The translations under genes and the position numbers were made by a program. Shown here in pieces: positions 13,379 through 46,110 of a stretch of DNA of 64,000 nucleotides; positions within the stretch are counted from its first letter, which is position 1, and the number at the start of each line of letters is the position of its first letter. The notes beneath the pieces are model-generated. The model was not told where the DNA came from. It did no database searches and saw only the letters and a list, made by a program, of their open reading frames with translations. The stretch is from Candidatus Bathyarchaeota archaeon (lineage in GTDB: Archaea; Thermoproteota; Bathyarchaeia; Bathyarchaeales; Bathycorpusculaceae), in contig OY969706.1 of assembly GCA_963702095.1 (NCBI GenBank), forward strand, positions 160,001-224,000. Reading direction: 5' to 3'.

Positions 13379-13686
13379 CCATGTATTCTTGTGAAGAAAA
13401 ACACCTTCCCCACACCGTAACAGACATAGAAAAACAATGCACCCCAAAAACACAACGCAACCCTCAACCAGTCTTGTGGCACCCCATAAAACGCCACACC
13501 CACATAAAGGGAAGGAAACAGTCTTTCTACAATAACAGTAAATCAAAAATTTGTTCTGTTTGCGTTTTGCTCCACAACCAGCAAGCAATCAAAAACAAAC
13601 GCTGAAGCATAAAAGCAACAGTTTGCACAATCGGCTGGTTGTTGTTGTGTATAGGAGGTTCTTGGCAACAACTAACAAATAAAAAA
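13379..13686 (+). repeat. Dispersed intergenic repeat, copy A (full length)
   Basis: 27/31 identity of 13410-13440 to 22683-22713; TTGCTCCACAACCAGC core; terminal hairpin GTTGTTG..CAACAAC followed by TAACAAATAAAAAA. Confidence 0.8.
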
Positions 13687-13875
13687 TTTGATCCACTGAT
13701 AAGGGAGCGGATAGAGTCGGCAGAGCAACAGAGGCTGCTTCTATGAATACACATTGAAATCTGAGCCTCAAACGCTTCTTGTCTTGCAATATTTATTTAA
13801 ACTTGGAACGCCAAACATAGCCAATATAGCTAATATATGCATGGCGTGTAAGGTACTCTTCGAGGATGGCATGGT

Positions 13876-14649
13876 TTGGCTTGGTATGATGACCCCATAA
13901 CTGTTTTGGCAATCGTTGCAGTGGTGGTTATCGTCTGCGGCACAGTCGCCTATGCGATGCACCGATACAGCACCACCAAAAAAGGCTCTAGCGAACCAAA
14001 AAAGCAGTCGCAGCCACAGCAGCAACCCCAAACCACGTCAACCGTTGACCTCCAATACACCAGCATGCCTTTTCGCGTCTCCAAAAGCGTCCAAACCTCC
14101 ATGGCGTCCACTGCCAAAGATGAGCTCCGTATGCTCGACCTCGAACGCGAAATTTTAGGAGACGCCATCCGACGCCTCTACGAGGCACAGGCAGAAGGAA
14201 AAATCAGCGAGGGCGAACGCGAAAAACTCGCCGCTTCATACAAGCAGCGGATGAACACCATTAAAGACTCCATCAGCAAAGACGAATCCATCATTGCGCT
14301 CCATGAACTTGAGGGCATGCAAGAAGACCTCATGAAACTGTTCAGTGAACGATTCGGCGAATTAACAAGCAAAGTCGAGGAACTCCGCACACGCATCGAC
14401 GTTAAACCCATCCGTGAAATCCCCGTTAAACCCCTCGTTGCCACGCCAATCCAAATAGAGGAAGACGACGAAGAAGAGACAGAAAACGATGTCTCCAAAG
14501 CAGCGGGCGAAGCGAAACCCAAAAGAAAACACAAACCCCCAGAAGAGAGACCCACCCAGAAAACCGAAGCCGAACGCCGCATCGAGTCGATTCGCAGTGA
14601 AGTAGAGAAGGTCCTCGACAAGTTAGGGCAGATGGAGATCGAAAGCTAA
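13876..14649 (+). CDS. Hypothetical membrane-anchored coiled-coil protein
   Basis: N-terminal TM, long heptad-rich region; 1 nt gap to rpiA. Confidence 0.75.
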   Translation: MAWYDDPITVLAIVAVVVIVCGTVAYAMHRYSTTKKGSSEPKKQSQPQQQPQTTSTVDLQYTSMPFRVSKSVQTSMASTAKDELRMLDLEREILGDAIRRLYEAQAEGKISEGEREKLAASYKQRMNTIKDSISKDESIIALHELEGMQEDLMKLFSERFGELTSKVEELRTRIDVKPIREIPVKPLVATPIQIEEDDEEETENDVSKAAGEAKPKRKHKPPEERPTQKTEAERRIESIRSEVEKVLDKLGQMEIES

Positions 14650-14650
14650 C

Positions 14651-15358
14651 ATGGACTCGGTAGCTGAACAGAAGCAGAAAGCCGCATTGGCAGCGGTAAA
14701 ACACGTTAAAGACGGCGACGTCGTCGGGCTTGGAAGCGGCAGCACAGCCGCCTACGCCATACAAGCCATAGGTGAACGCGTTAAAACCGAAGGCATCCAC
14801 GTCATGGGCATACCCAGCAGCTACCAAGCCTTCCAAGTCGCAGTCGAATCCGGCATCCCAGTAACCACGCTTGACGAGCACCCCATAATCGACGTCACAA
14901 TCGACGGCGCTGACCAGTTGACGCCACAGCTCTACCTCATCAAAGGCGGCGGAGCAGCATTGGCACGCGAAAAAATCGTTGCGTCCGCTTCTAAAGTCAA
15001 CATAATCATCGCCGACGAAAACAAAAAAGTCCCCGTCTTAGGCGCCAACAACCAGTTCGTCCCCGTCGAAGTCATCCCCTTTGCACTCTCACCCGTCAAA
15101 CTCAGATTGGCTGAAATGGGCGGAAAAGTCACGGTTCGCGAAGCCAAAGGCAAATTGGGCCCAATCATCACCGATAACGGCAACGCAGTTACCGATGTGG
15201 TCTTCGGAGAAATCCAAAACCCCGCAGAGTTACAGGTTAAGGTAAAGATGGTTCCGGGTGTGGTTGAAACAGGGTTTTTTGTGGGTTTAACCGACATCGC
15301 ATACATCGGCACTGTCAACGGTGTCGAAAAAATCGCTGTAACAAGAAAGCCACTTTAG
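14651..15358 (+). CDS. rpiA: Ribose-5-phosphate isomerase A
   Basis: GLGSGST, DGAD, IKGGG.AL.REK, PVEV, TDNGN, PGVVETG. Confidence 0.97.
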   Translation: MDSVAEQKQKAALAAVKHVKDGDVVGLGSGSTAAYAIQAIGERVKTEGIHVMGIPSSYQAFQVAVESGIPVTTLDEHPIIDVTIDGADQLTPQLYLIKGGGAALAREKIVASASKVNIIIADENKKVPVLGANNQFVPVEVIPFALSPVKLRLAEMGGKVTVREAKGKLGPIITDNGNAVTDVVFGEIQNPAELQVKVKMVPGVVETGFFVGLTDIAYIGTVNGVEKIAVTRKPL

Positions 15359-15438
15359 CATTGAGCGGTGTGGCTGATGGTTTGTAGTCACACAACTTAA
15401 AATAAACTGCAGCCCTCAAGTCTCTTTGAGGTTTGGGT

Positions 15439-15590
15439 TTGTCTATTCTTTTGTGGCTGGCGCTTATTGCAGTTTTGCTGTGGCTGTTCGGCTGGATAGT
15501 GTTCCCCGGCATCGGTATAATAATCCATATAGTTCTCTCATCGCCATAATCTTTCTTGTTGTCTGGCTTATAACAAGGCGAAAGCCCTGA
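15439..15590 (+). CDS. Small lmo0937/DUF5670-like membrane protein (one-base frameshift near 15537)
   Basis: TTG start after GAGG; MSILLWLALIAVLLWLFGWIVFPGIGIIIHIVL, continuing IAIIFLVVWLITRRKP* after a one-base shift. Confidence 0.55.
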
Positions 15591-15662
15591 CGGTTGTCTC
15601 TTCTGATGCTCTCACAGACATCTAACCCCCCTTATATAAAGGCAGAAAAAGAGGAATGTCTT

Positions 15663-16013
15663 ATGGAAGCAGTAGCTTTTGGCTGCGTAAAAATCAACGG
15701 AGAAAAATACGACAAAGACCTAGTCATCCATGCAAACGGCGAAGTCACCAAACGCAGAAAGAAAAAAAGCAAACCCCTGAAACAAGACTACGGCCACACG
15801 CCCCTCTCTGAGATGGAACTCGACTTTTTAGAGGAGGAAAAACCTGCGGTCGTCTACGTCGGCACAGGCTACAACGCCGCCCTACCCATCACACCCGAAG
15901 CCCTAGCAATCCTCGCAGACTACAAAACCGTCATCTTACCCACGCCCGAGGTGCTTCCGAAAATAGAAGCAGATAAAAGAAAACTCGTAGCCTTCATACA
16001 CGTTACTTGTTAA
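15663..16013 (+). CDS. Mth938-like domain protein
   Basis: FG.V.INGE.Y..D.VI...G.V..R.K; VGTG; HVTC C-terminus. Confidence 0.85.
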   Translation: MEAVAFGCVKINGEKYDKDLVIHANGEVTKRRKKKSKPLKQDYGHTPLSEMELDFLEEEKPAVVYVGTGYNAALPITPEALAILADYKTVILPTPEVLPKIEADKRKLVAFIHVTC

Positions 16014-17289
16014 CTGAGTTCTTGGGACATTGTTTCCGTTTATCGCGAAGTATTTTTGCCGCCAACACGGCTACAGCTACAGCTAATATGAAAACCAAAG
16101 GCACAAGAAACCATGGAACAACCGCCGAATCCGCTGGCGTTGACGGATTGCCAAATGCGTACAATCCGCTCCTTGTAACCACATAAACCATGCCATCAGC
16201 GACAACAGGGTAAGATTGTATCCAAGTATCATGGCTGTTGGGGATAATGTACTCCCAAATTATGTTACCCGTCGAAATGTCGAGGGCAAACAGTTTTTCG
16301 TCGATACTATACATACCCTCTTGTCCGTTGTCGACGTTTCCATACAAGTAAACGGTGTTATCGGCTGCAACTGGCGAATATATTTCACCGCTAAATTCGC
16401 TGTCAGTGTTGTTCCATAGTAATATGCCTGTTGATGAGTCAACTGCGGTGGTTCCAAGCACTAGGTATTGACCGACAATTACTGGGCTTCCTTTACCGAC
16501 GAACCCTCCAGCCATGGTACGCCAAAGCTCAGTTCCATTAAAGGCATCTAAACAAACAGTGTATTGCGCGTTTACGTAGACCCGTCCGTCAGCCACAGCT
16601 AAGCGACCAAGTGAAGAGTCAAGTCTATAGTACCAAACTTGCTTTCCGGTATAAGCGTTCAAAGCATAAATACCATCGTTTGAGGTGCCATACACACTTA
16701 GAAAAAGCAGCCCATCAGCAAAGGCAGGCGAGTTTTCAGTCCATAAGTCATCATTAACCCACAATAAGCTTCCCGACGAAGCGTTTACAGCGAAAACCTC
16801 AGTATGTGATCCCAAAAATACTGCTCCGTCAACAACTATCGGAGAAGTAGCCCCCTGCTTAGCGTAAATGAACATAAGCGACCCTGTAGAAGTGTTATAA
16901 GCAGCACTTGTAGTGTAAACGTACATTCCATCCACGGCAACTCCTATGTAATCATTAGGATTTGCTAGTTTACTCTGCCAAATTTCAGTACCGTTTGAGG
17001 CGTTAAAGCAAAAAAGATAATCGCCGTTAACAATGTAGAGTTTCCCGTCTCGGATAACTGGGGCGCATGCCAAATTAAAAATATCTTCGGAAATCCATAC
17101 GGGGGTAGCAGCGGAGGCAGGTACTGAACTATTTGAGTAACTTGTTCGGGCAGCATCATGCCCAAACATTGACCAATCATCCGTTGGCGAGGTAGCTTTC
17201 ACAGTTGGTTGTTGAGGAAGAGCACCTAAAGTCACAACAATAAGAAGCAGCAGCCCAATCAATGACTTGTTAATTTTAGCCACCAGCAC
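16003..17289 (-). CDS. Secreted PQQ-like beta-propeller repeat protein with C-terminal TM anchor
   Basis: Signal peptide, DW.MF.HD, repeated SP...DG..Y...A.NA.TG...W. Confidence 0.85.
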   Translation of the reverse strand: MLVAKINKSLIGLLLLIVVTLGALPQQPTVKATSPTDDWSMFGHDAARTSYSNSSVPASAATPVWISEDIFNLACAPVIRDGKLYIVNGDYLFCFNASNGTEIWQSKLANPNDYIGVAVDGMYVYTTSAAYNTSTGSLMFIYAKQGATSPIVVDGAVFLGSHTEVFAVNASSGSLLWVNDDLWTENSPAFADGLLFLSVYGTSNDGIYALNAYTGKQVWYYRLDSSLGRLAVADGRVYVNAQYTVCLDAFNGTELWRTMAGGFVGKGSPVIVGQYLVLGTTAVDSSTGILLWNNTDSEFSGEIYSPVAADNTVYLYGNVDNGQEGMYSIDEKLFALDISTGNIIWEYIIPNSHDTWIQSYPVVADGMVYVVTRSGLYAFGNPSTPADSAVVPWFLVPLVFILAVAVAVLAAKILRDKRKQCPKNSVNK

Positions 17290-17333
17290 CCAACCAACAA
17301 GGCGCTCAAAGACCCTTAAATCTATTTGGAAGA

Positions 17334-18106
17334 CTAAGCGCTGATTTTTGGTGGTGGACGCACCCGCTTCTTGCCCAACTTCACCCTTAGTGCTATGCGG
17401 TAGAGTTTGCGCAGTGACTTAACAAGTTGCTCCACAGTGGGCACTGTCGAGTAAATCAGCGGTATCTGCTCGTACTCGGCTATGCGCAGGGTTTCTTCAT
17501 CAGGCACAGTTTTGTGGAAGACGATCACGCGGGGTTTTAGGCTGCTAACGCGGACAATCATCATGGGCAAGCATCCTGACTCGACATTGGTGAAAACCAC
17601 TGCCCGCTCAGTCGAGGCGCCGAAAAGCTGCGCGTAATCCGAGCCAGAGTAAGCTTCAACGGCTCTGCGGCTATCGATAACCGTGTAACCCGTGACTTCT
17701 TTGACGTATTTTTCTTTGCAAGCTACCACTTCGCCGCCGATGGCTTTGCAGAGGTACTCCACGCGGACGGGAATGGGGAATTCACGGAGATCCACGACTG
17801 CCATGCTGGGGCTGCTGGTGAGTTTAGCGAATTCACGGATGAAGCGGCTGCCTTTTGTCTCGTCAATATGTATGAGTGAGAGGACGAATCGGCGGGTGAA
17901 TTTGGCTCCGGGGCTTTGGCGTCTGCCGCTTTCGTAGTCGCTGATTACTGAGGAGGAGACACGCATGGTTTCGCTTAGGCTCGTCTGCGAGACGGCGAAG
18001 AGTTCACGCCACTTCCGCACTGCGCTGCGCCTGGCTTGCTTGAAAGGATGATTTCTCCGGCGATTCTTCTGGCTAAAATTTCACGTAGACCCGGCGACAC
18101 AGACAT
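17334..18106 (-). CDS. XRE-HTH transcriptional regulator (COG1709-like), frameshifted near 18025
   Basis: Upstream frame MSVSPGLREILARRIAGEIILSSKPG joins RKWRELF..SQ..L...M.VS.SVISDYE.GRR.SPG. Confidence 0.8.
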
Positions 18107-18169
18107 GGATCATTCTTCCTGCTTGCATCTTCCACCTTCAAGACAGAGGTATAAAACTGTACCGTTTTT

Positions 18170-19070
18170 TTAAACTAGGAAGAGCAACACGATGCCAGCC
18201 ACGATTGCGGCTGCTCCAACAATGGTTTTTACGGTTGCTTTTTCTTGGAAAAGCAAGAAACCAGCGAACGTGGCAAACAGCGGCGAAGTCGAAGAAATCG
18301 GTATTACATAGGATTCTGGTGAAGTCTGGAAACTGTAATTCATCAGTAGCCAGCCTAAGCCGTTGGCAATTAACCCGCCAACGCACAGTAAGATTACTCC
18401 GCGACGGGAAATCTTGAGAAACCCCCTATCCCTATCGATGAGCGGCGCTAAAACCAGCAGAATCAGCGCCATAGCGGCAATACGCACAGTGACGATGGCA
18501 TAGCTGGCGCCTAAACCAGCAACCGCTGAGTAAGTTATGGCATAATCCATCATGGTTATGCCTATCGACCACACAAGCGCCGTACCCAAACACATGGCGA
18601 CGCCGACCCCAAGCTACCCTGCCCCTAACTGTTGGTTCCTGGGGGATTTTTTGGCTGCTCAAAAGCCAGATGCCGACCAATATCACTGCGGCTCCAACTA
18701 CCGCAGCAGCCGACAGGGGCTGCCCCCGCAGTAGAACTGCCCAAACCAGACTGAACAGCGGGTAAGATGCGGCTAAGGGTACGGCTCTTGAGACTCCGAT
18801 GGATTTTAACCCAAACATGTAGAGTGTGTCGCCGACGCCAAGCCCCAAGACGCCGCTGACTATAACAACCACCAGTACCCAAATGGGCAGAGCAGCTAAA
18901 ACCCCAACCAACCCTACACCCACCAGTATCACAATCAGCACAGCGGCGTTGGTTGCGCATCGCGTGATGTTTGCGGAGATTGGCTTGGTGTTTGTGAGTG
19001 CTTTGCGGTAGAGTATGGGTGCAATTGCCCAGCATAATGCTGTGCCGAGTGCAGCGAGTTCGCCAATCAT
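18170..19070 (-). CDS. EamA/DMT family transporter, frameshifted near 18615
   Basis: Two EamA halves in different frames (GELAALGTALCWA...GDTLY; ALVWSIG...PISSTSPLF). Confidence 0.85.
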
Positions 19071-19205
19071 CCATCTTTGACCGAGAGTCCCTTTACTGAA
19101 ATCTTGTTTATAAGGAAGTTTTGCGTACTTAACACTAACGTTCGCCGTCAAAAGGACAGCTGAACGTTAAGCATCGCAAACAACAGAAAAAAGGAGTGAA
19201 TATAC

Positions 19206-19496
19206 ATGTCTGAAAAAGCTAGTGACGTAATATTTGTTGGAAACAAACCCCCAATGAGCTATGTGCTCGCTATCATAACCGCATTCTCAAGTGGTACCCA
19301 AAAAGAAATAACCCTAAAAGCCCGAGGTCAAGCAATCACTACCGCAGTTGACGTAGCCGAAATTACCAGAAGCCGCTTCATAAAAGACCTTAAAGTCACC
19401 AAAATCGCAATCGGTACCGCAGAGATGCCGCCACGAGAGGGCGAAAACAGGTCCAGAATGGTTTCCACGATAGAAGTTACTCTAACGAAAGCGTAA
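19206..19496 (+). CDS. albA: Chromatin protein Alba
   Basis: IFVGNKP.M.YVLA...LKARG.AI..AVDVAE...VSTIEV.L. Confidence 0.95.
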   Translation: MSEKASDVIFVGNKPPMSYVLAIITAFSSGTQKEITLKARGQAITTAVDVAEITRSRFIKDLKVTKIAIGTAEMPPREGENRSRMVSTIEVTLTKA

Positions 19497-19520
19497 CCAC
19501 GACGGACAAATAAAAGAGTT

Positions 19521-22308: not shown

Positions 22309-22650
22309 GATTCAAGCCTCCTTCAGGAAATGGTAACTTCATTATAATACCAGCCATTAATGACATTTAATCGTCCTCTATCTGATGAACTTAACCATAC
22401 GGTAATTGGCGATGAAGGATTATGCGGTAATAATAAAGTATTGGCGGCTGCTTTTTTGTTCCATTGCATTTCGCCTTTTAGTCATCTGCACAAAGAAAAG
22501 AGGTGCTTGCGAGTGAGACTTCGAGCTGTCCGGAGTACAAATCCCCCTGTTCCACTTCTCTTTGCTTTTAAACCAATTCCCTAAGTTCTACGCAGGCAAG
22601 TCGCTTTTAACATGCTTCCACATCCACACAGTTTGGATTTCAACATGGAG

Positions 22651-22976
22651 CCATGCAGGGTGTGTGGAGAAAAACGGATATGCCACACCGAAACAGACGC
22701 TGAAAAACAATGCTTCCACAAAACACAAACGCCTCCACAACCCATCTTGTGGTGCCCCACAAACCGCCACACCCACACAAAGAGAAAACGCATAGTTGCT
22801 TTCATAGGGGGTCGAGTCAGAGCAGTAGGCCTGAATTGTCTGGCACTACTTGTAGTTTGCTCCACAATCAGCCAGCAATCAGCAACAAACGTAGAAGCAA
22901 AAAAGCAATCGCTCCCAAAGCCTCCGAGAAGATGATGAGTAAGGGCACCTCTGCCTTCATCTAACAATAGAAAAAA
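22651..22976 (+). repeat. Dispersed intergenic repeat, copy B (full length)
   Basis: Homologous to 13379-13686; hairpin AGATGATG (22930-37) / CTTCATCT (22955-62) followed by AACAATAGAAAAAA. Confidence 0.8.
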
Positions 22977-22986
22977 GCACTTAGTG

Positions 22987-23023
22987 TGCACTTAAGAGGT
23001 AGCGGTTCAAATCCCGCTTTCAC
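22987..23023 (+). repeat. Degenerate copy of tRNA-Ala 3' half (relic att site)
   Basis: TGCACTTAAGAGGT..GGTTCAAATCCC versus tRNA TGCACTCAAGAGGT..GGTTCAAATCCC (from 21399). Confidence 0.6.
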
Positions 23024-23102
23024 TTGTCTATTGTTTCTTTTTCTTTTCTACGGTTGCACTTAATTATCGTTTACCGATTGGATGCCGTGCGCTAAAACTG
23101 CT

Positions 23103-31335: not shown

Positions 31336-31462
31336 TACTTGCAGAATCCACCCTAACCAGCCAGCAACTGCAGAAACCCGCAGAATCCAAAACACAGCCG
31401 CCTGCAGAACCCGCTGGTTGTTGTTGTGTATAGGAACCTTCAGCAACAACAACATTAGAAAA
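31336..31462 (+). repeat. Dispersed intergenic repeat, copy C (3' part)
   Basis: AACCAGCCAGCAAC core; GCTGGTTGTTGTTGTGTATAGGA identical to copy A; stem GTTGTTGTTG/CAGCAACAAC followed by AACATTAGAAAA. Confidence 0.75.
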
Positions 31463-37820: not shown

Positions 37821-37900
37821 GTTCTGCTTGTAGAAACCTCCACAACCCGCCTGCAACCCCTCTATGGTACAAAACCCAAAAACACAGCCGCTCACTAAGC
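37821..37900 (+). repeat. Dispersed intergenic repeat, copy F (internal fragment lacking hairpin)
   Basis: GTTCTGCTTGT..CTCCACAACC shared with copy E; AAAACACAGCCGC shared with copy C. Confidence 0.6.
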
Positions 37901-37943
37901 TCACTTAATTTTTAGTGATTGATTAAAAATAAAAAAGAGGAAG

Positions 37944-39089
37944 TTATTTGTTTATTCGCTTCTTAAGCACCACTGCAATGATTGCAGCTGAAATCAAGAC
38001 AGCAGCTAAGATGGCAGCGACGTATGCAAGGGGAAACTGGTTGAATTCTGCAACAGTTTGGTCCTTAGAGAGGGTTGGGTCAACCGAAGAGGAGGCGCTA
38101 GGTGAACTATCCGGAATGTACCCTCCGCCAGATAAAGTTACACAAGAGATTATTTCGCCACTGTCAGCCCACAACTGAACACGAATTTGACTTACAAAGT
38201 AAGGGTACAATTCGCTTAGCGGCAGATAAACTACCCAGATCGGATGCAAACTTCTATCTTCACCGCGGCTCTTAGAAAACGGTTCTGCACGGATGTAGTC
38301 ATGTACTATTGAAAAGTTTGAGATTACTTCGCCATCGTCCATTCGGTATGAGAAGGTTTCCGCCCGCTTTAATGCCAAATCTATCGCCTGCTCTCGGGTA
38401 ATGTTTACGGTGGTGTCGCCGATAGAATTGAGGCTTCGACTATCCGCAAAGGAACTAAATTGTCCGTCCTTGAAGCTTACGTTTATTCCAGGGTAGTCCA
38501 CGCCGTTGAAGGTTGGTTTCCAATGGAATAATGTAGTATTGCCATTTGATGATACTTCAAGCTTTAAGTTGCCCTCGATTTTCGATGAATCCTTTGAGGG
38601 GTCTATATTGACAAGCATGTTTCGCATTATGGCTATATCTTTATCACCGGTAAATTCTTCGCATTTTTCCATGAATGCAGCTGCATTATTGACAATATTG
38701 GCTGATGGGTTTTTGGTATAAATCGGCGACCCCGAAGTTGCATATAACTTACAGGATAATAGATTACTGCCTGCGAAGTTGAAGATACAATGCAGAAGAC
38801 TGTTTTCGTGGTTTTCGAAATCTAGATAATCTAAATCATAGCGTCCAGATGTTTGAATGTATCCAGCCTCACCAATTAAACTGATTTCGGAAAGATTGGT
38901 CGTGTAAAAAGAGTTAAGGTGTATTTCGTACTTCGATAAATCGAGGTTAACAACATTACTTAAGAAAGTTAGGACTTTTTCAGGATCAGCTTGCGATTCA
39001 ACTTCAGATGCACGGCAATATGAAAGTGGCTCGGACAGTGTTAGTGCTAGGAAAGCTATCAGAATGGCTGTTGTTAATTTTTTGTTCAT
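37944..39089 (-). CDS. Secreted/surface protein with C-terminal TM anchor
   Basis: Signal peptide; PepSY-like IT.EQAI..A...W.V...A.SGEI; S/P linker, TM, basic tail. Confidence 0.75.
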   Translation of the reverse strand: MNKKLTTAILIAFLALTLSEPLSYCRASEVESQADPEKVLTFLSNVVNLDLSKYEIHLNSFYTTNLSEISLIGEAGYIQTSGRYDLDYLDFENHENSLLHCIFNFAGSNLLSCKLYATSGSPIYTKNPSANIVNNAAAFMEKCEEFTGDKDIAIMRNMLVNIDPSKDSSKIEGNLKLEVSSNGNTTLFHWKPTFNGVDYPGINVSFKDGQFSSFADSRSLNSIGDTTVNITREQAIDLALKRAETFSYRMDDGEVISNFSIVHDYIRAEPFSKSRGEDRSLHPIWVVYLPLSELYPYFVSQIRVQLWADSGEIISCVTLSGGGYIPDSSPSASSSVDPTLSKDQTVAEFNQFPLAYVAAILAAVLISAAIIAVVLKKRINK

Positions 39090-39101
39090 TTTTTCACCGT
39101 T

Positions 39102-40664
39102 CTATCTTGGAATTGTTGCATATCCATCGCCCCATACACGTAACTGTGTGGTGGTATAGTTTCCATGCACAGCATCCCACACTACTTGCTGATTTAAATA
39201 GAGATCACTATTTGCGAAGTCTACGCCGTTTATAAAGTATGAAGCGTCGTCAAGAGCATTTTTGACATTCTCTCCTTGGAGAAGAGTGTTGAAGAATAAG
39301 ACAACAAATTGTGACATATATCTATCATCCAATTGTCCCATGTCATTGTAATTGGCCGAGATTGATGTGAAACAAATGAAAACATGATCAGAGAGATCAG
39401 GGTCTGCATATCCATCGTCCGCCATTTCGCTATTAGGATCTGTGATGTCAAGCCAAGATGCAAGCATACCCCAAGCGTGATCTCCTGAGATTTCTCCAGC
39501 ATTGTCAGGATGCCCTTCTACGCATGACCAGAGAAAAACGAAGTCATGTGTGCCACGTGTATGACTCGTTACAGATTTTGCAGCTTGTACACTAGCAAAA
39601 AGCTCATAGTCTGTTATAGGATCCAGTGAATCGTAACCATTTATATCGACGATTCCCCAATGGTTGATGGGGCAGCTAGGATTACCGCAGCCTCCAGCAC
39701 TGTCATCCAGCCAGAAATGCCCTTTGTAGATAACTAAGGAATAATCGCATACTATTTCGTTCGCATATGTATTATAATAGACAGTATCCGTGTATGTTCC
39801 ATCATTTCTATTTCCCCAATCATCGATGCAAGGGCTATATTTGCCAGTATTAGCGAAATAAGTTGTAATATAGGACGAAACTGTGCCTGACATCGAACGT
39901 TCAGCTTCTCCGCCATACTCGGGGGGGTACCAGAGAGTGCCATAGGAGGTCATGCTTGGTGTTCTCAATAAACCAAAATCATAGGAAGTATCTGTTCGAT
40001 CCATGATTACTGGACCTACAAAATAACAGGTCTTTAGAACATTATTGCTTGAATCTAAAACTTGTATATAACAAACCTGAAGCCCCGTAGTGTCTGCTGT
40101 CCACAAATCTACTCCTCTGATCACAACATCGACAGTTGAACTTGAGAAACCTGATAGATTTAGGATACCCGATGTATCTTGTCTCCAACCAATCCATCCG
40201 CCATTGCTAGTAGCAGGGTAGCTACAGGCCAGTACAGAGGTGTAATCGCTGATTGGATGTTGTACGTTATCTACTGTCGTCCTAAATTCATCGTCATTTA
40301 TAAGTCGCCTGTTGAGTTCGTGGTCAACCACATAAAGTTCGGCAAGAGTTACGGGATCACCGTAGTAATCATAATACCATTGCCAGTAAACTCGCAATTT
40401 CTTTCCGTCAAGATAGCTTCGGTCAAATGGCATAAAGATGTAGGCGTCACCAAGGCCGTTATCTGTTGACATAGCTTGAAGAACTGAGCCGGAGTCTTTA
40501 CTAAAAGTGTATGCTGGAGTGTATGCGTTCCATTGTTTGTACTCTTTTAATGCTTCTGTGCTGTATAAGTCTGTGGAATTTGCTTTAACAGGTGCAATAC
40601 CGATGAAAAGGGATGCAAGAAGTGAAAGCAATAGCAAACTTGGAATTATATGTTTCCTATGCAA
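39102..40664 (-). CDS. Secreted hypothetical protein
   Basis: Signal peptide; 520-aa ORF; KGH...FVFLWSC segment reminiscent of His/Cys peptidase folds (weak). Confidence 0.7.
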   Translation of the reverse strand: MHRKHIIPSLLLLSLLASLFIGIAPVKANSTDLYSTEALKEYKQWNAYTPAYTFSKDSGSVLQAMSTDNGLGDAYIFMPFDRSYLDGKKLRVYWQWYYDYYGDPVTLAELYVVDHELNRRLINDDEFRTTVDNVQHPISDYTSVLACSYPATSNGGWIGWRQDTSGILNLSGFSSSTVDVVIRGVDLWTADTTGLQVCYIQVLDSSNNVLKTCYFVGPVIMDRTDTSYDFGLLRTPSMTSYGTLWYPPEYGGEAERSMSGTVSSYITTYFANTGKYSPCIDDWGNRNDGTYTDTVYYNTYANEIVCDYSLVIYKGHFWLDDSAGGCGNPSCPINHWGIVDINGYDSLDPITDYELFASVQAAKSVTSHTRGTHDFVFLWSCVEGHPDNAGEISGDHAWGMLASWLDITDPNSEMADDGYADPDLSDHVFICFTSISANYNDMGQLDDRYMSQFVVLFFNTLLQGENVKNALDDASYFINGVDFANSDLYLNQQVVWDAVHGNYTTTQLRVWGDGYATIPR

Positions 40665-40878
40665 TTTTTTATTCTCCCAAATTTGTGTCTAAGAGCTAAG
40701 GCGTTAGCTCTCAGCAAGTAATGTATTAAGAGCAATCTATTAATAAAGTTAATTCAGAAATTGAATATTTTGATTAAAACAAAAAGGCTTACTTTTTCAG
40801 TTTAAACACAAGAGCACTGTACAGGGCTTAGCTCCACATCTTGAATTTTAGATTAAATAATTTGCTGGTCTATGGATC

Positions 40879-40994
40879 GCCACAACCAGTATGCAAGCCA
40901 ACCCAGACGTAGCCACAGAAAAGCAGCCGTCTGCCAAGCCCCTAAGAAGTTGTTGTGTAAGGCCGACTTTTCACTACTTCTAACAATAGAAAAA
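40879..40994 (+). repeat. Dispersed intergenic repeat, copy D (3' part)
   Basis: CCACAACCAG core, GCAGCCG, hairpin AGAAGTTGT (40945-53) / ACTACTTCT (40973-81) followed by AACAATAGAAAAA. Confidence 0.75.
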
Positions 40995-41091
40995 CAAACA
41001 CTTCAATCAATTTGAATGCAGCTATGGGAACGCTTAACTTTTTAACCAAAACAACATATCCTACAGGATAAGCAGAAGAGAGGGAAGCGGC

Positions 41092-41499
41092 ATGCCTATC
41101 AAGTATTATGAGGCTCCAGAAATTAAAAAGCAGGTTGACCAGTTGGCGCAGGAATGCGAATTCTACCATGTAGTGCCCCAGTTCGTGTTCTGCGTCCGAA
41201 GCCGAGGCTCTAAAGCCCGCCGCACCATCGCCCGCATCCACGGCTTGGGCAGAATCTGGCAGGGCGTACTCAACCTTCCGCCGTCCTACACCATCGAGGT
41301 CATCTCGGAGATCTTTGACAGGATGTCATCTGAAGACAAGGAAAGAACCCTCATCCACGAACTCATGCATATTCCCGGCGGCTTCGGCGGCGGCTTCCGA
41401 CCCCACAAGGGCTATGTGGAACGCAAAAACGTCGAAGCAGTCTATAAGAAGCTGCAGTGCGACCGCGCGGCGAAGCGGCAGAAAACCCTTTTTTCCTGA
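41092..41499 (+). CDS. Putative metallopeptidase (COG4900-like)
   Basis: RS.GSK...ARI.G, Y.IE.ISE.F, HELMHIP. Confidence 0.8.
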   Translation: MPIKYYEAPEIKKQVDQLAQECEFYHVVPQFVFCVRSRGSKARRTIARIHGLGRIWQGVLNLPPSYTIEVISEIFDRMSSEDKERTLIHELMHIPGGFGGGFRPHKGYVERKNVEAVYKKLQCDRAAKRQKTLFS

Positions 41500-41635
41500 C
41501 AAAAACTGTGGCTGTAGCGCCAAATTTTTAAGCTACGCAGACGGGATACTGGGAGTTGACGTTTTCGGCAACAAAAGGATTATAAACCCAAATAAGCAAA
41601 GTCACAAAGAACTTTGCCGCAGACGAGGAAAAAAA

Positions 41636-43296
41636 ATGAAGCATGTTATGAAAAGCCTAAAACACAACGGCATATTCGTCCCACCCTACGACCTCAAAGG
41701 GTTCACAGTTAAAATTGCAGGTCAACCAATCAAACTATCAGAGAAAAGCGAGCCCATGGCAGTCGCTTGGACCCGCAGAGTCCTATCCACAACCATCCCC
41801 GCGCCAGACAAGGTTTTCACACGCAACTTCATGCGGGAATTCCTCGACCGAATCAAACAGGAAAACCCATCTGCAGCTTACCTCAACACGTTTATCCCAA
41901 AATACATTGACAGCATCGGAAACGCGCCTGCCACACAGAACAATGGCGGCAGCCAAGTCAGCGAAATCGACTTCACACAAGTCCGCGCTTTCATTTTGGA
42001 GGAAAAAGCCAAAAAGGAAGCCCTAACCAAAGAGGAAAAGAAAAAACAAGCCGAAGAGCGCAAAGTCAAACGGTTGGAATTCAAGGAAAAATACGGTTAC
42101 GCCGAAGTCGACGGTCAAAGGTTGGAAGTTGCCAACTGGACCGCGGAGCCCAGTTGCCTCTTTGCAGGACGCGGCGACCACCCGCAGCGGGGCAAATGGA
42201 AAGAAGGCCCCGCCAAGCAGACATCACCATAAACCTCTCACCAGACGCGCCTAAACCAGAGGGGTGGAACGTCACTTGGGAACCTAACAAAATGTATGTT
42301 GCCAAATGGGTTGACAAACTCACAGGCAAAGTCAAATACGTCTGGTTTAGCGACACCGCTTTTTTGAAGCAAAACCGCGAGAAAGAAAAGTTCCAGAAAG
42401 CCGAAACCCTGGGCAAACAAATCAAGCAAATCGAAGCCCACATACTCAAAAACCTCAACGCCAAAGAAGAGGAACGCCGCAAAGTCGCGACGGTTTCATG
42501 GCTGATTCTTGTTCCCAACATGAGGGTCGGTGATGAAAAGGATCCTGACGAAGCCGACACAGTAGGCGCCATCACACTGCGCCCTGAACACATCACAGTC
42601 AACGGTGAATCCCTTCACTTTGACTTCTTAGGCAAAGACAGCGTCCGCTGGGTAAAAGAGTACACGGCACCCCCCTCAGTAATCAGAAACATCGAGGAAT
42701 TCTCCAAAGACACAACCAAGCAGTACCTTTTCGAAGGCATCGACAGCAAAAAAGTCAGCCGCTTCCTCTCTGAGAAAATGCCTAAACTCACCGCCAAAGT
42801 CTTCCGTACCTGGCGATGCACCAAAACCGTCAAAGAAGAACTTGAAAAAAGCGGCGTAACCAAAGAAGACCCCGACTACAAAAAGAACTATGCGGCGAAA
42901 ATGGCTAACTTCAAAGTCGCAGAAGTCGCCAACCACAAACGCAAAATCCCCCCCACCTTTGACCAACGCGTCGCAGAGAAAGAAGCCAAACTCAAAGACA
43001 TGCAGGAAATTCTCAACGCAAAAAAGAAAGAGGGCAAAAAAACTGAGACGCTTGAAACCCGCATTGAACGAGCCAAACTCGACTTAGAACTCACCAAACT
43101 CACCAGAGAATACAACTTGGGCACATCGCTCAAGAGCTACATTGACCCAACCGCCTACGTGAAATGGGCTAAGAAAGTCAAGTTTGACATAGAGAAATTC
43201 TACCCCACGACGTTACGGAGCAAGTTCAGCTGGGCATTGGAGCAGCAAAAGAAGAAAGCGACCGCAACCTGCGACGCCGAGTGCATCACGCCTTGA
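41636..43296 (+). CDS. DNA topoisomerase IB (eukaryote-like), frameshifted at C-run 42208-42211
   Basis: L.HNG..PP.Y; EP..LF.GRG.HP..GK; catalytic residues in MRVGDEK, GKDS, KVFRT, NH and TSLKSYIDP. Confidence 0.9.
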
Positions 43297-43586
43297 GCAT
43301 CAAAGAAACCGGCGACGGCGTCCTATTAACCATTTACGTTAAACCCAACAGCCCCAAATTCAAAGTGGCACTCGACGGAGGCGAAGTGGTTGTTTATGCT
43401 ACTGAGGAACCAGAGAAGGGCAAAGTAAACAAAGAAATCATAAAAGAACTCACCAGGCTTTTGCATGCACAGGTGGAGCTTGCAGCTGGGTTCACTTCTA
43501 AACATAAACAACTGATCATTAAGGGCTTGAATAAGCAGGAACTTGAAAAGGGGCTTTTCGCTAAAAATAAGATTGGAAAAACATAA
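43293..43586 (+). CDS. DUF167/YggU family protein
   Basis: V.PNS......P.KGK.NKE...L....V.L..G.TSK.K. Confidence 0.85.
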   Translation: MSIKETGDGVLLTIYVKPNSPKFKVALDGGEVVVYATEEPEKGKVNKEIIKELTRLLHAQVELAAGFTSKHKQLIIKGLNKQELEKGLFAKNKIGKT

Positions 43587-43615
43587 AAGGCAAACAATAC
43601 AACGCTAGCACGGCG

Positions 43616-44059
43616 ATGAAAATGAAAGCTGATCAGAGAACAACAGCTGAAGTAACCCAAACCTTCAAAGCAATGTTTGAAGCCTTCAAGAAAAAAGACC
43701 TCCAAGCAACCCTCTCCTACTGGGCACCCGACCCCGATCTGGTAGCCATCGGTACAGGCGCCGACGAGAAAGCAGTCGGATTAACCCAGTTCACCGAGAG
43801 CCTAAAGCGGGATTGGGCACAGGGAGAATTACAATCCATCGGCGTCACCGACTTCTCCGTCTCCGCGGCGGGTTTAGTCGCATGGTTCTCAGCCGACATT
43901 ACCTTGCACGGCACCTCAACCGATGGGAACTTTGATTTTCAAACACGCTTAACAGGGGTCATGGAGAAGCGGAATGGGAAGTGGTTGTGGGTGCAGATGC
44001 ATCTATCCACGCCCAGTTGCGAGCAAGAGCATGGGCATTCTTGGCCCACAAATCCGTAG
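43616..44059 (+). CDS. SnoaL/NTF2-like protein
   Basis: GTG.DE...G, VAW, R.TGV.EK..GKW..VQ.H.S. Confidence 0.85.
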   Translation: MKMKADQRTTAEVTQTFKAMFEAFKKKDLQATLSYWAPDPDLVAIGTGADEKAVGLTQFTESLKRDWAQGELQSIGVTDFSVSAAGLVAWFSADITLHGTSTDGNFDFQTRLTGVMEKRNGKWLWVQMHLSTPSCEQEHGHSWPTNP

Positions 44060-44259
44060 CCGCATGGATATGTCGAATCTTGAAATATGCCTTATATGCG
44101 CTGGAACATTAATTGAGCTAAGAACTGAGAGAGGGGCTAACACCCTCACCTTACCATTAGTCGGCTTTTCGTAATTCTTACAAGTTTTGAACTGGAAAAT
44201 TAAAATAAAACTGTTTACTTGTTGTCAGGGCTACAAACATTAGCTTAGAGGTAAAAAGT

Positions 44260-45849
44260 ATGACTGGCAGTCCTGACGAAAACCGAATCATCCCAAGAAC
44301 AATGTCCACTCAGCACCCTGACAACGCAAACAACCCTGAATGGAGCAAAGACGAAGTCATAAACGGCAGCTCAGAAGTCTACGAAGCCTACTGCGCCTAC
44401 GCCTCACTAGGTTGCCAAGAAGTCATGTGGGATTCAGAGGGCAAAGACACCGACACCCACGTTTCCCGCAAACTTCTAGAGAAGTACTGGGATTATTTTG
44501 CCAGCCACACAATCGGCGAAGACGTATACCTCACCTACCGCATACCCAACCCCAAAATCGAAGGCGCCGAAAAGAAAATAATAGTAGAAACCCTACAGAA
44601 CATCCCCGTGGCGTTCGATGTAGCTTCAATGGTGTACAAGCGCGAAGTTGCTCCCATCTTCGAAGTCATCCTCCCATTCACCACCGAAGCCAAAGAAATA
44701 ATCATGCTCTTCAACTACTACAAAAAAGCCATCGTAGCCGCAGAAGACGCCGCCCTCTATGAATCCACAACGGTGAAAGACTGGATTGGCAACGTCAGAC
44801 CCAAAGCCATCAAAGTAATCCCGCTGGTCGAAGACTTCGACAGCATACTACACGTTGACAAAATCGTGGAGCCCTACCTAAAAGCCATCAAGCCCAAACA
44901 GCAACGCGTCTTCATCGCACGATCCGACCCCGCCCTCAACTACGGATTCATCTGCGCAGTTTTGCTCTCCAAAATCGCCCTGAGCAAGCTTAAGGCATTG
45001 GAGAAGCAGCAGAACACCCAAATCCACCCCATCTTAGGCGTCGGCTCTAAACCCTTCAGAGGACACCTCTCCCCCGACAACGTCGACAACTTCCTCGAAG
45101 AATACAAAGGATTATCCACAGTCACCATCCAATCAGCATTCCGTTATGACTACCCCGCCGAGCAGGTTAAAGAGAGCATACAAAGCCTCAGCCAACGTCT
45201 CCCCAACGGCAACCCAGCCGCCATCGGAACCGAAGACATGGACACCTTACAGAATATACTGGGCAAGTTTAGGCTGCAGTATGAACGCCAAATCGAAGCG
45301 TTGGCGCCCTTCATCAACAGCGTCGCCGTCTATGTGCCCCAGCGTAGAGCAAGAAAACTCCACATCGGCCTCTTCGGTTACAGCCGCTGTGTCGCAGGCG
45401 TATGTCTCCCCCGAGCAATCAGCTTCGCCGCCGCCCTCTACAGCGTTGGACTACCCCCCGAATTCATCGGACTCAAAGCGCTGGCTGAATTAAACGACAG
45501 GGAATGGCAGACACTGAACCGCTACTACCTCAAAATGGTCCTTGACCTAAAACTGGTCGGCGAATACGTGTCACTGGAGAACTTTAGCATGCTGTTGGAG
45601 ATGAGCCGCACAACCGCGAAGAGGGCAGGCATGAGCGAGGAAAAACTCAAAGATGCCCTGACCATGGTGCTTGAGGACTTAAACACTGTAGAGCAGAAAA
45701 TGGGCATCAAACTGGGGCCGAAAGGGGTAGCACAGCGCAAACACGAAAACTTTACCAACAATTTCTTGCTCAGCTACATCCAAAAGCAGGATGCAGAGGC
45801 TAAGACGGCGCTGGTGGAGTCGGCTAAACTGCGCAAATGCTTAGGCTAA
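44260..45849 (+). CDS. ppcA: Phosphoenolpyruvate carboxylase, archaeal type
   Basis: IPRTMSTQHPDN, MWDSEGK, RVFIARSDPALNYG, PFRG, RARKLHIGLFGYSR, LPRAISF. Confidence 0.96.
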   Translation: MTGSPDENRIIPRTMSTQHPDNANNPEWSKDEVINGSSEVYEAYCAYASLGCQEVMWDSEGKDTDTHVSRKLLEKYWDYFASHTIGEDVYLTYRIPNPKIEGAEKKIIVETLQNIPVAFDVASMVYKREVAPIFEVILPFTTEAKEIIMLFNYYKKAIVAAEDAALYESTTVKDWIGNVRPKAIKVIPLVEDFDSILHVDKIVEPYLKAIKPKQQRVFIARSDPALNYGFICAVLLSKIALSKLKALEKQQNTQIHPILGVGSKPFRGHLSPDNVDNFLEEYKGLSTVTIQSAFRYDYPAEQVKESIQSLSQRLPNGNPAAIGTEDMDTLQNILGKFRLQYERQIEALAPFINSVAVYVPQRRARKLHIGLFGYSRCVAGVCLPRAISFAAALYSVGLPPEFIGLKALAELNDREWQTLNRYYLKMVLDLKLVGEYVSLENFSMLLEMSRTTAKRAGMSEEKLKDALTMVLEDLNTVEQKMGIKLGPKGVAQRKHENFTNNFLLSYIQKQDAEAKTALVESAKLRKCLG

Positions 45850-45977
45850 ATACGCAGCCCTACTCATTTTCTCCTCCTTCTCTGAAGAAACATGAAATTT
45901 AATGTTAAGTCGAATGTTTTTAATGTCATCAAATGTTGACTCGACCCGCTCTATCAGTGGAATCAAAGGATTCTTTG

Positions 45978-46110
45978 GTTCTGCTTGTGATTTGCTCCAC
46001 AACCAGCCAGCAACCCATTTCCGTTGCTGAAAAAAAAATGCAGCCGCCCACCAAAGCCACAGGAAGAAGAGTAAAGGGGCTCCTCTGCCTTTTTCTAACA
46101 ATAGAAAAAA
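45978..46110 (+). repeat. Dispersed intergenic repeat, copy E (3' part)
   Basis: TTTGCTCCACAACCAGCCAGCAAC; hairpin GGAAGAAG (46062-69) / CTTTTTCT (46089-96) followed by AACAATAGAAAAAA. Confidence 0.78.

Follow-up and report, generated by a model that had tools for sequence, protein, structure and literature searches.

The Correia elements (CREE/NEMIS) of Neisseria are noncoding repeats of 100 to 160 bp that occur in hundreds of intergenic copies, in both orientations and often near the ends of genes; they form subtypes and can be present or absent between close relatives. Essentially all copies end in well-conserved inverted repeats of 26 bp and have a TA duplication, and no cognate transposase is known. 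In the MITEs of archaea (Sulfolobus, Methanocaldococcus, and the haloarchaea), the terminal inverted repeats match an identifiable IS of the same genome. Other small repeats have other architectures: ERIC is a long imperfect palindrome over its full length, BOX is built from A, B, and C boxes, and REPs are palindromes of 20 to 40 nt that co-occur with a Y1 (RAYT/TnpA) gene.

The Bathyarchaeia repeat described here shares with the Correia elements, as these are generally described, its small size, high copy number, noncoding and intergenic nature, frequent position near the ends of genes, occurrence in both orientations, subtypes, presence or absence at individual sites, and lack of a known transposase. 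It differs in that inverted repeats of about 13 nt are found in only a minority of copies, the best-conserved parts being internal boxes and a 3' stem-loop, and it belongs to another domain of life and has no sequence similarity to them. Like the archaeal MITEs, it is a small nonautonomous repeat in archaeal intergenic DNA, but no IS with ends related to the repeat was found in this genome. Unlike ERIC and BOX, the core is mostly nonpalindromic and CA rich and carries one 3' hairpin, the arms of which follow a G-W-W period; unlike REPs, the unit is 131 to 190 nt long, includes long nonpalindromic boxes, and is found in a genome in which no Y1 gene was detected. ERIC/IRU and pneumococcal BOX/RUP (see also PMC3184786, PMC2759123) are, like the Bathyarchaeia repeat, intergenic repeats of about 100 to 170 bp with stem-loop potential, an uncertain means of spread, and a modular or mosaic build; the Bathyarchaeia core combines with an "up-module" and a promoter-like module. 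REP/REPIN with RAYT transposases and IS200/IS605-derived PATEs (see also PMC3116915, PMC3733652) resemble it in having a hairpin as the conserved feature and an extragenic location enriched at gene 3' ends; a further likeness is the GTAG in the left inverted repeat CAGTAGATC of the Bathyarchaeia repeat.

Copies in the window and across the genome

The window is a stretch of 64,000 nt from a closed genome of 2.94 Mb. An iterated nhmmer profile of the repeat core (134 positions) recovered the six window copies where the initial annotation had put them, all on the + strand. The features are as follows, in window positions.

13379..13535, +, CA-rich up-module upstream of copy A, with a GTGGC..GCCAC hairpin and ACCCACATAAAG tail; outside the core family
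13536..13548, +, left short inverted repeat of copy A, CAGTAAATCAAAA, complementary to ATTTGATCCACTG at 13686-13698
13554..13686, +, copy A, full-length core (model positions 1-132, E=9e-26), with T-type arms GTTGTTG/CAACAAC
13685..13740, +, promoter-like module downstream of A (..CTGATAAGGGAGCGG..GCAGAGCAACAG), 1 of 34 genome-wide matches to the module profile
13686..13698, +, right short inverted repeat of copy A, ATTTGATCCACTG, partner of the left repeat
22651..22830, +, up-module and promoter-like module upstream of B; shared flank cluster, module match at genome positions 182768-182830
22846..22975, +, copy B, full-length core (model positions 3-132, E=2e-28), with A-type arms AGATGA/TCATCT
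31336..31462, +, copy C, full-length T-type core (model positions 4-131), in a divergent intergenic region
37822..37904, +, copy F, 3'-truncated core (model positions 1-82 only)
40877..40995, +, copy D, core with mosaic arms AGAAGTTGT/ACTACTTCT (model positions 16-133)
45979..46110, +, copy E, full-length A-type core, GGAAGAAG/CTTTTTCT (model positions 1-133, E=5e-28)

Copy A is one of 11 copies with both short inverted repeats, and the hairpin of copy B lies at about positions 22930-22962. The upstream flank that constitutes the up-module is common to 9 copies that cluster together, A and B among them, and the module profile covers the tail of the up-module upstream of A. Copies C, D, and E had been taken to be 5' truncated with a fixed 3' end, an idea that arose because the upstream modules of A and B were mistaken for part of the full-length form; the cores of C, D, and E are full length, and what A and B carry in addition on the 5' side is a separate repeat module. 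The truncated copy is F, at its 3' end, and it opens a duplicated two-gene block of 2.9 kb (genome positions 197822-200718 versus 988056-990947, 87%).

The window copies are a small part of the family. The genome-wide profile search returned 181 copies at E<=0.01, with bit scores of up to 125, far exceeding chance; together they make up 0.8% of the DNA and are fairly evenly spaced over the chromosome. The shared orientation of the six copies proved to be local chance: 99 copies are on the + strand and 82 on the - strand, their order along the closed chromosome is random (runs test, z=-0.41), and the longest same-strand run is 6 copies, with runs of at least that length arising in 95% of shuffled strand orders. 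The suggestion of a polar chromosomal site, with an orientation switch along the chromosome, is thereby refuted.

Essentially all copies are intergenic. With a crude ORF caller, 149 of the 181 lie outside ORFs; the remaining 32 overlap short ORFs (median, 104 amino acids [aa]), 19 in antisense and 13 in sense orientation, and only one of them is inside an ORF of at least 200 aa. The 149 intergenic copies occupy 51 convergent, 30 divergent, and 68 tandem regions, compared with about 30.5, 41, and 77 expected from intergenic length (chi-square of about 18, 2 df, by our own arithmetic), such that gaps between convergent genes are over-represented. This distribution over gene contexts is the pattern of tolerated insertions. 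In tandem contexts, 42 copies run in the direction of the genes and 26 in the other direction (p=0.07). Mean pairwise identity between copies is 64% and median nearest-neighbor identity is 80%, indicating an old family and not a recent burst, and no near-identical copies pointing to recent movement were seen in the genome. Rfam, which could have identified the repeat as a described family, gave no match even at E<=1.

Core anatomy, ends, and the 3' hairpin

The core, about 131 nt in length, combines conserved boxes with a 3' stem-loop, whose arms read (GWW)n/(WWC)n, and with an A-rich tail. As first described, conservation in the family is highest in the loop start (GTAAGG/GTATAGG), the AACAATAGAAAAA-like tail, and the CCACAACCAGCC.GCAAC box. 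Some boxes of the core are invariant and other positions vary freely, a very uneven pattern that also fits a host function.

The repeat had been reported to lack terminal inverted repeats and target duplications, and this is accurate for most copies: 111 of the 181 have no recognizable inverted repeat on either side and so fall outside the definition of a MITE. It does not hold for 11 copies that have CAGTAGATCAAAA...TTTTGATCTACTG immediately outside the core, 4 to 5 of which also show A/T-rich direct repeats of 4 to 5 bp outside the inverted repeats. Some copies thus form units with terminal inverted repeats of about 13 nt that span 163 to 190 nt; with one mismatch per arm allowed, 6 such inverted-repeat pairs were found over this size range, each with a core inside. 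An extended model reached the left repeat in 42 of the 181 copies and the right one in 31; in 13 copies it reached both. Candidate target duplications are short, A/T rich, varied in sequence, and present in few copies only. Covariation was also looked for in the 5' TTGWGG/CCWCAA inverted repeat, and none was seen.

That the two arms of the 3' hairpin change together was borne out. Among 44 diverse copies of this genome, 88.7% of cells pair compared with 70.3% after shuffling, a value reached by 0 of 500 shuffles, and both sides have changed in 4 of the 7 pairs; among 32 distinct copies from other genomes, the figures are 90.8% and 72.3%, with both sides changed in 5 of the 7 pairs. New complementary arms, GTTGATG/CATCAAC and GTAGAT/ATCTAC, were seen in two copies from another genus. 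Between arm types, A and T trade places at two of every three positions, with complementarity kept and G fixed at every third position. The proposal that this S-W-W periodicity reflects protein readout fared poorly, as the arm types swap A<->T yet stay complementary and there is no common reading frame. The covariation exists between a few arm types and not between individual copies: chimeras of same-type arms from different copies fold like native hairpins (-11.4 versus -11.5 kcal/mol, p=0.25). It could arise without structural selection, through loop-spanning conversion tracts or template switching in an inverted repeat. RNAalifold found no consensus structure for the copies, and whole-element folding barely beats shuffles (z=-1.4 forward, -1.1 reverse). 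The hairpin region is more stable on the given strand in 131 of 162 copies and on the complement in 29, which hints at G-U pairs; G-T and A-C cells are, however, equally rare in the seven well-supported stem pairs, which leaves the poorly aligned inner part as the sole source of the strand signal.

Orthologous sites and taxonomic range

In G007, the closest relative, 40 copies were examined, of which 19 have collinear flanks in this genome. Of these 19 sites, this genome keeps a copy at 14, in the same orientation at 13 and in the opposite one at 1 (within a 5-kb interval), and lacks a copy at 5. The arm type differs between conserved flanks in 7 of the 13 same-orientation pairs, and core identity in these seven is 0.56 to 0.82, against an average of 0.70 for nonorthologous pairs. 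Flank alignment reaches within about 10 nt of the core in two of the five alignments inspected. Of the window copies, D, E, and F are conserved in G007, A and B are absent, and C is replaced by an A-type copy in opposite orientation in the same intergenic region. Copy E has its ortholog in the same relative orientation, after the PEP-carboxylase gene, and copy D is at the orthologous place, where two G007 contigs break inside the copy. Copy B lies within a stretch of about 420 nt that is missing from the G007 site; the right edge of this gap is at or within a few nucleotides of the A-rich tail, the left edge is about 290 nt upstream of the core, and CACTT is present at both junctions. Comparison with this relative thus revealed presence, absence, and replacement, but it recovered no clean pair of filled and empty sites with a duplication, the "empty" sites in this genome being unrelated or remnant sequence.

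The repeat is restricted to one Bathyarchaeia family. A covariance model matched 37 of 61 genomes of the genus, with at least 51 scored matches in 5 of them; the 24 without a match include two single-contig genomes with a completeness of 97% and 88%. In a class-wide sample, 3 of 141 genomes matched, all within one family. An exact-pattern scan of the genomes of 185,579 species found 38 loci, all in Bathyarchaeia/Bathyarchaeota metagenome-assembled genomes (one titled only "uncultured archaeon"), and the same scan found 0 loci in viral contigs.

Possible origins of the family

As one of three readings, the initial annotation proposed a nonautonomous element with a structured end, mobilized by HUH/rolling-circle or reverse transcriptase enzymes. 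Spread through a single-stranded or RNA intermediate, with the hairpin as substrate of an IS200/IS605-type HUH transposase or the A-rich tail as priming site of reverse transcription, would suit a 3' end made of a hairpin and a short conserved tail, the position of the copy B gap and its CACTT junctions, and the A/T-rich, variable candidate duplications elsewhere. We regard it as very improbable: Y1_Tnp (HUH), the TnpB zinc ribbon, RVT_1, DDE_Tnp_1 (IS4/5), and IS110 had no match in the closed genome, and the Y1_Tnp, TnpB, and RVT_1 searches did detect their families in control genomes. Orientation along the chromosome is also free of strand bias, the copies once taken to be 5' truncated are not, and some copies are flanked by short inverted repeats. 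The genome has three IS6-like genes, which are not plausible partners; the two examined have ends unlike the repeat, and the presence of such genes in the genus does not follow that of the repeat, with 6 of 15 repeat-rich and 11 of 24 repeat-free genomes having them. Fragments of a decayed protein-coding gene, or a conserved peptide-coding module, might account for the 3-nt period of the arms and the overlaps with ORFs. This origin is effectively refuted, as those ORFs are short and on either strand, A<->T swaps at two of three arm positions would alter every codon, and small indels between boxes shift the frame from copy to copy.

Small structured noncoding RNAs or cis-acting RNA modules of untranslated regions, with a CA-rich single-stranded body, terminal hairpin, and A-rich tail, would owe their spread to a benefit from the RNA, which might act as a protein sponge, stabilizer, or processing site. 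Conserved boxes alternating with free positions, as in functional RNAs, hairpin complementarity kept in several arm types and in a second genus, greater hairpin stability on the given strand, the tendency to point with tandem genes, and a TATA-like TTTATA about 30 nt before the conserved start in copies with the left inverted repeat all speak for such RNAs. We nevertheless consider them unlikely, given a range from none to more than 50 matches among congeners, which implies that the family is dispensable, the lack of a promoter-like motif at a fixed distance in most copies, the weak folding of the whole element, the equal rarity of G-T and A-C in the stem, and the absence of an Rfam match. A host site acting as DNA, a repeated platform whose GNN-periodic arms would be bound, as duplex or cruciform, by a protein of chromosome architecture, segregation, or recombination, is less probable still. 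The fixed G and swapping W positions, the even spacing, and the 13 of 19 mappable sites that keep place and orientation in the nearest relative are consistent with it, but orientation is random relative to the chromosome, the family is missing from complete relatives in the genus, the copy at a given site can be exchanged for another and is sometimes lost, and 80 nt of conserved nonpalindromic CA-rich sequence would be left without a role.

On balance, we lean toward reading the six copies as lineage-restricted small noncoding interspersed DNA repeats, similar to MITE, Correia, ERIC, or BOX repeats, that now evolve by copy exchange. The family has expanded to about 180 intergenic copies in both orientations in this genome and has very different copy numbers in congeners. 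A nonautonomous element remains the best-supported class because of this range in copy number, the presence, absence, and replacement of copies at sites, the subset with inverted repeats, and the excess between convergent genes; the HUH or reverse transcriptase mobilizer of the initial proposal was not found in the closed genome. Spread at the DNA level would have been helped by an enzyme supplied in trans that is now unrecognizable or gone from the genome. The stem-loop is presumably the part that needs to stay self-complementary, and it could be a folded single strand recognized in mobilization or exchange or an RNA structure within neighboring transcripts. Copies at fixed loci are now mostly overwritten by other family members, as 7 of the 13 orthologous sites show, and the likely route is ectopic gene conversion, with the conserved boxes of the two ends as anchors.

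An interspersed repeat family in the closed chromosome

The window makes up bases 160001 to 224000 of a closed chromosome of 2,937,366 bp. A profile built from the six window copies matched the whole chromosome 181 times at E<=0.01, 99 times on the plus strand and 82 times on the minus strand, and two more rounds of nhmmer returned 182 and then 181 matches with a model of 134 positions. The family is real, abundant, and restricted to one Bathyarchaeia lineage. Its core is a small, multicopy, noncoding repeat of 131 nt (the middle half of the nhmmer match lengths falls between 128 and 132 nt); the 181 copies have no common reading frame, and their reading as pieces of a coding gene is rejected. 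Both end motifs could be anchored in 139 of the 181 copies, 77 of which have a CTGCTTG-to-TAGAAAA distance of exactly 129 nt. In pairwise comparison the 162 full-length copies share 64% identity on average, and the median identity of a copy to its nearest neighbor is 80%. Altogether the family occupies 24,223 bp, or 0.82% of the genome.

The initial annotation described six related intergenic stretches, A to F, and the final model finds exactly these within the window. The CCACAACCAGCC.GCAAC box, the loop start, and the tail, singled out there as shared features, are indeed the best-conserved blocks of the family as a whole. The repeat had been called unexplained, and this holds against Rfam, where no copy found a match at gathering thresholds or at E<=1; only tRNAs pass threshold in the window.

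Copies of the repeat core in the window and the sequences adjoining them (window coordinates unless stated; core boundaries from nhmmer)
13554-13686: core of copy A
22846-22975: core of copy B
31336-31462: core of copy C
37822-37904: core of copy F, partial, model positions 1-82 only
40877-40995: core of copy D
45979-46110: core of copy E
13379-13535 and 22651-22767: up-module, consisting of a GTGTGG..CCACAC hairpin, a GTGGC..GCCAC hairpin, and a ACCCACATAAAGAGAAAA tail
13685-13740 and 22768-22830: promoter-like module, (TTTGATCYACTG)-TTAAATA-GGGGAGGGG-N-GCAGAGCAACAG
37822-40718 (genome 197822-200718) and genome 988056-990947: duplicated 2.9-kb block

Copies C, D, and E, previously read as 5' truncated with a fixed 3' end, proved to be full length, and the sole truncated copy in the window, F, lacks the 3' part. 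Copies A and B look longer because a separate CA-rich up-module, common to a cluster of nine copies that includes both, sits upstream of their cores. The layout of this module, in which AAAAGCAACCGCC is followed by a hairpin and finally an A-rich tail, is like that of the core, and the up-module may therefore be a sister family. The promoter-like module has 34 matches genome-wide and stands after the core or after the up-module. The next open reading frame is co-oriented with it in 14 of the 34 cases, often at a distance of 23 to 155 nt, a placement that looks promoter-like; in the other 20 cases the next open reading frame is opposite, with its stop codon within about 8 nt of the module end in 8. 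A role for this module as a long terminal inverted repeat was rejected, as inverted 5' placement was seen in only 1 case compared with 16 downstream placements.

Copy F lies at the first base of a 2.9-kb block with two open reading frames (381 and 520 amino acids) that is duplicated at 87% identity. At both sites the block starts at a partial core (positions 1 to 83), and a full, co-oriented core follows about 120 to 160 nt after it. The duplication may have used core copies as portable homology. Neither the 381-amino-acid nor the 520-amino-acid product matches Pfam, and nothing therefore marks them as transposases.

Orientation and position among genes

The shared orientation of the six window copies is a chance outcome. 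The strand order of all 181 copies comprises 88 runs compared with 90.7 expected (z=-0.41), and the longest same-strand run is 6, a length reached or exceeded in 95% of shuffles. A polar chromosomal site of the KOPS or Chi kind, one of the readings first put forward, would show an orientation bias that switches at the origin or terminus; this reading is rejected, and almost every 100-kb bin contains copies on both strands.

Relative to a gene set of crude longest-ORF calls (2,785 open reading frames), 149 of the 181 copies lie between genes. Short open reading frames on either strand (median, 104 amino acids) overlap the remaining 32, and just one of these 32 copies lies inside an open reading frame of 200 amino acids or more. 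The intergenic copies fall in 51 convergent, 30 divergent, and 68 tandem regions, compared with about 30.5, 41, and 77 expected from the length of each class (chi-square of about 18 with 2 degrees of freedom). Within tandem regions, 42 copies share the direction of the genes and 26 oppose it (p=0.07). The neighbors of the window copies are ordinary genes, encoding phosphoenolpyruvate (PEP) carboxylase, a P-type ATPase, topoisomerase IB, an AMP-binding enzyme, and an acyltransferase. An open reading frame at window 41315-42232 carries a eukaryote-type topoisomerase I DNA-binding domain (PF02919, E=3e-31).

Beside copy E, the minus strand of window 46095-46390 contains two fragments resembling tRNA 3' ends (..GGTTCAAATCCCTTCC.. 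and ..GCGGGTCCAAATCCCGCCGAAGGCTCCA), neither of which was called as a tRNA by ARAGORN or Rfam in that interval. The second of these overlaps the end of a 71-amino-acid open reading frame that has a CxxC motif and extends into it. Judged from its sequence, the arrangement looks like the split-integrase/att configuration of an integrated archaeal element, and the T-run that directly follows it is supplied by the tail of copy E.

The 3' stem-loop and its arm types

In the in-register stem, G-W-W-G-W-W-G pairs with C-W-W-C-W-W-C. Among 161 distinct copies, the three G-C pairs are kept in 148 to 152 sequences, and the W pairs are A-T in 92 to 100 sequences and T-A in 53 to 56. The proposal that the two arms change together is confirmed. 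In 44 diverse copies, 88.7% of cells pair compared with 70.3% in shuffles, a level reached by 0 of 500 shuffles, and both sides have changed in four of the seven pairs; the covariation, on the other hand, lies between a few arm types, namely, an A-type (101 copies), a T-type (58 copies), and mosaics of these. The stem register is ambiguous, and a partner slid by 3 positions in either direction still pairs in 82% of cells, because the arms have a 3-nt period. In 32 distinct copies from other genomes, 90.8% of cells pair compared with 72.3%, with both sides changed in five of the seven pairs, figures from an alignment that was fitted to the structure by the model and is therefore biased in its favor. 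New complementary arms, GTTGATG/CATCAAC and GTAGAT/ATCTAC, are present in two copies of another genus.

Compensation specific to individual copies was sought with chimeric hairpins, in which the 5' arm of one copy is joined to the 3' arm of another, and none was found: same-type chimeras are as stable as native hairpins (-11.41 and -11.49 kcal/mol, respectively; p=0.25), and cross-type chimeras are weaker (-8.92 kcal/mol). RNAalifold gave no consensus structure on the 162 copies or on the 44, and whole elements fold weakly better than shuffles (z=-1.4 and -1.1). The 5' inverted repeat TTGWGG/CCWCAA does not covary, its central pair being TA in 57 copies, AA in 31, CA in 29, TT in 24, and AT in 13. 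Folding favors the given strand over its complement in 131 copies and the complement in 29; this strand evidence for the hairpin is weak because the seven solid pairs contain equally few G-T and A-C cells. In the best-fitting reading, the 3' stem-loop stays self-complementary. Mosaic arms such as those of copy D could come from conversion tracts that span the loop and exchange the inner segments of the two arms together, in which case the arms would remain complementary with no need for selection on individual pairs. A function of the repeat at the RNA level is conceivable.

Distribution and turnover among related genomes

A BLAST search with one copy detected the family in 5 of 31 relatives, this genome counted. 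Within the genus, a covariance model matched 37 of 61 genomes, with at least 51 scored matches in five genomes, G005, G007, G014, and G046 among them, 11 to 37 in ten, and 1 to 5 in many. The covariance model found no match in 24 of the 61, among which are genomes in a single contig with a completeness of 97% and 88%. When the class was sampled evenly, 3 of 141 genomes matched: the present one, a congener, and a member of a second genus within the family. An exact two-box pattern occurs at 38 loci in species-representative genomes, all of them metagenome-assembled genomes of Bathyarchaeia or Bathyarchaeota (one is titled "uncultured archaeon"), and was not found in viral contigs.

Copy turnover was followed in the nearest relative, G007, whose genes are 85 to 94% identical at the DNA level to those of this genome. 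Copies D, E, and F are kept in place and orientation in G007. Copy A is missing, with part of its up-module still there, and copy B lies within a composite stretch of about 420 nt that is missing from G007, with CACTT at both junctions and a right edge at or within a few nucleotides of the A-rich tail. This stretch is flanked by two tRNA-like 3' fragments (window 22500-22561 and 22985-23025) that are adjacent in G007. At the site of copy C the flanks are common and the inserts of about 300 nt differ, being T-type on the plus strand here and A-type on the other strand in G007.

Forty G007 copies were fetched with their flanks; 19 are collinear with this genome, 12 are not, and 9 have an unmatched flank. 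The 19 collinear sites hold a copy in the same orientation in 13 cases, a copy in the opposite orientation in 1 (across a 5-kb interval), and no copy in 5. Arm type differs in 7 of the 13 same-orientation pairs (five T versus A and two mosaic versus A), with a core identity of 0.56 to 0.82; five pairs of the same arm type have identities of 0.79 to 0.89, the pair at locus L103 (0.73) could not be assigned an arm type, and nonorthologous pairs have a mean identity of 0.70. Of five alignments displayed, those of loci L085 and L106 have both flanks aligned to about 10 nt before TTCTGCTTG and again just after the A-rich tail; at L094, the downstream flank alone does so. Arm types are thus swapped between kept flanks: at a fixed site, one family member often takes the place of another in the same orientation. 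No clean empty site was found; the four alignments examined for the five copyless sites (L097, L118, L116, and L120) show diverged or remnant sequence and no precise gap. From the alignments, such replacement would seem to be explained better by gene conversion with the end boxes as anchors than by insertions made independently.

Ends, candidate partner enzymes, and the kind of repeat

Terminal inverted repeats and target site duplications had been reported as absent, which describes most of the family and not all of it. When an inverted repeat was called at 3 or fewer mismatches in 13 nt, 111 of the 181 copies had neither one, about 38 had the left one, about 35 had the right one, and 11 had both. 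In these 11 copies, CAGTAGATCAAAA stands 5 to 10 nt before the core (about 40 to 55 nt in two) and TTTTGATCTACTG stands 0 to 18 nt past the tail; A/T-rich direct repeats of 4 to 5 bp (ATAA, TATA, TTAAA) lie just outside the inverted repeats in four to five of them. Six inverted-repeat pairs, with one mismatch per arm, span 163 to 190 nt, all around a core. When a 206-position model that includes the inverted repeats was used, it extended to the left one in 42 of the 181 copies and to the right one in 31; in 13 copies it took in both. Most copies are therefore without recognizable ends, and their internal boxes are still conserved. Longer elements bounded by the same ends were not in evidence, with 31 pairs at larger, insertion sequence (IS)-like spacings compared with 31 in a control arrangement. 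At genome 2631773-2632083, the same short inverted repeats stand 310 nt apart with no core between them; this pair may hold a different payload between the same ends.

Small interspersed repeats of the MITE/Correia/ERIC type fit the family best. It does not qualify as a MITE in the strict sense, because most copies show neither the ends nor a duplication and a related IS was not found. No autonomous IS with the same ends was seen, and self-comparison of the genome yielded only a few repeats of 400 bp or more, with two or three members each and no large family above three. Mobilization by an HUH enzyme or by a reverse transcriptase had been suggested, and neither has a candidate in the closed genome. 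The Y1_Tnp domain (PF01797) has no match there, and the same search found the family in 6 of 14 control genomes; this, together with a single supported hairpin near the 3' end where such elements would have a palindrome of 20 to 40 nt or paired subterminal hairpins, rejects the REP/REPIN-RAYT and IS200/IS605 PATE readings. RVT_1 (PF00078) is likewise without a match in the closed genome and gave matches in control genomes, and a retroposon would also not account for the family because the window copies do not show 5' truncation with a fixed 3' end. The TnpB zinc ribbon (PF07282), found in control genomes, has no match in this genome, which speaks against an omega-RNA or right-end-derived RNA of TnpB. 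DDE_Tnp_1 and DEDD_Tnp_IS110 also had no match in the closed genome and gave matches in control genomes.

The genome does contain genes matching DDE_Tnp_IS240, which are IS6-like.

IS6-like genes
Genome 1161960-1162340: DDE_Tnp_IS240 match
Genome 1195199-1195612: DDE_Tnp_IS240 match
Genome 1962934-1963350: DDE_Tnp_IS240 match
Fetched locus L082, 2793-3950, minus strand: one of these three genes, about 380 amino acids, N-terminal SWIM zinc finger
Fetched locus L081, 2818-3948, minus strand: a second of the three, about 380 amino acids, N-terminal SWIM zinc finger

The two examined genes have no obvious terminal inverted repeats and no ends resembling those of the repeat. IS6-like genes are patchy in the genus (24 of 61 genomes) and occur in 6 of 15 repeat-rich genomes compared with 11 of 24 repeat-free ones; with no matching ends and a distribution that does not track the repeat, they were rejected as the partner. 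The repeat is best seen as old and without a recognizable partner, evolving mainly by loss and copy exchange. A more specific reading, which we regard as improbable, is that the core is a cassette exchanged between fixed sites by an unrecognized archaeal enzyme that reads the end boxes and the folded (GWW)n/(WWC)n stem-loop. Such an exchanged cassette might deliver promoter-like modules to neighboring genes.

A full-text literature search, judged on titles and the beginnings of abstracts, returned no description of this family or of Bathyarchaeia repeat families. The Bathyarchaeia are abundant, mostly uncultured sediment archaea, and the repeat has practical consequences for their genomics. 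Assemblies of relatives break at it, as in G007, where copy D contains the ends of two contigs. It also seeds rearrangements and can lead gene callers astray, as with the 32 spurious short open reading frames that overlap copies. Copy replacement between kept flanks provides a handle on recombination in an archaeal lineage without a genetic system. If the cassette reading is true, the repeat would be a new hairpin-directed mobile or recombining element in Bathyarchaeia that works without any known transposase family, and an enzyme that used the hairpin as its substrate would represent a new mobilization or recombination activity.
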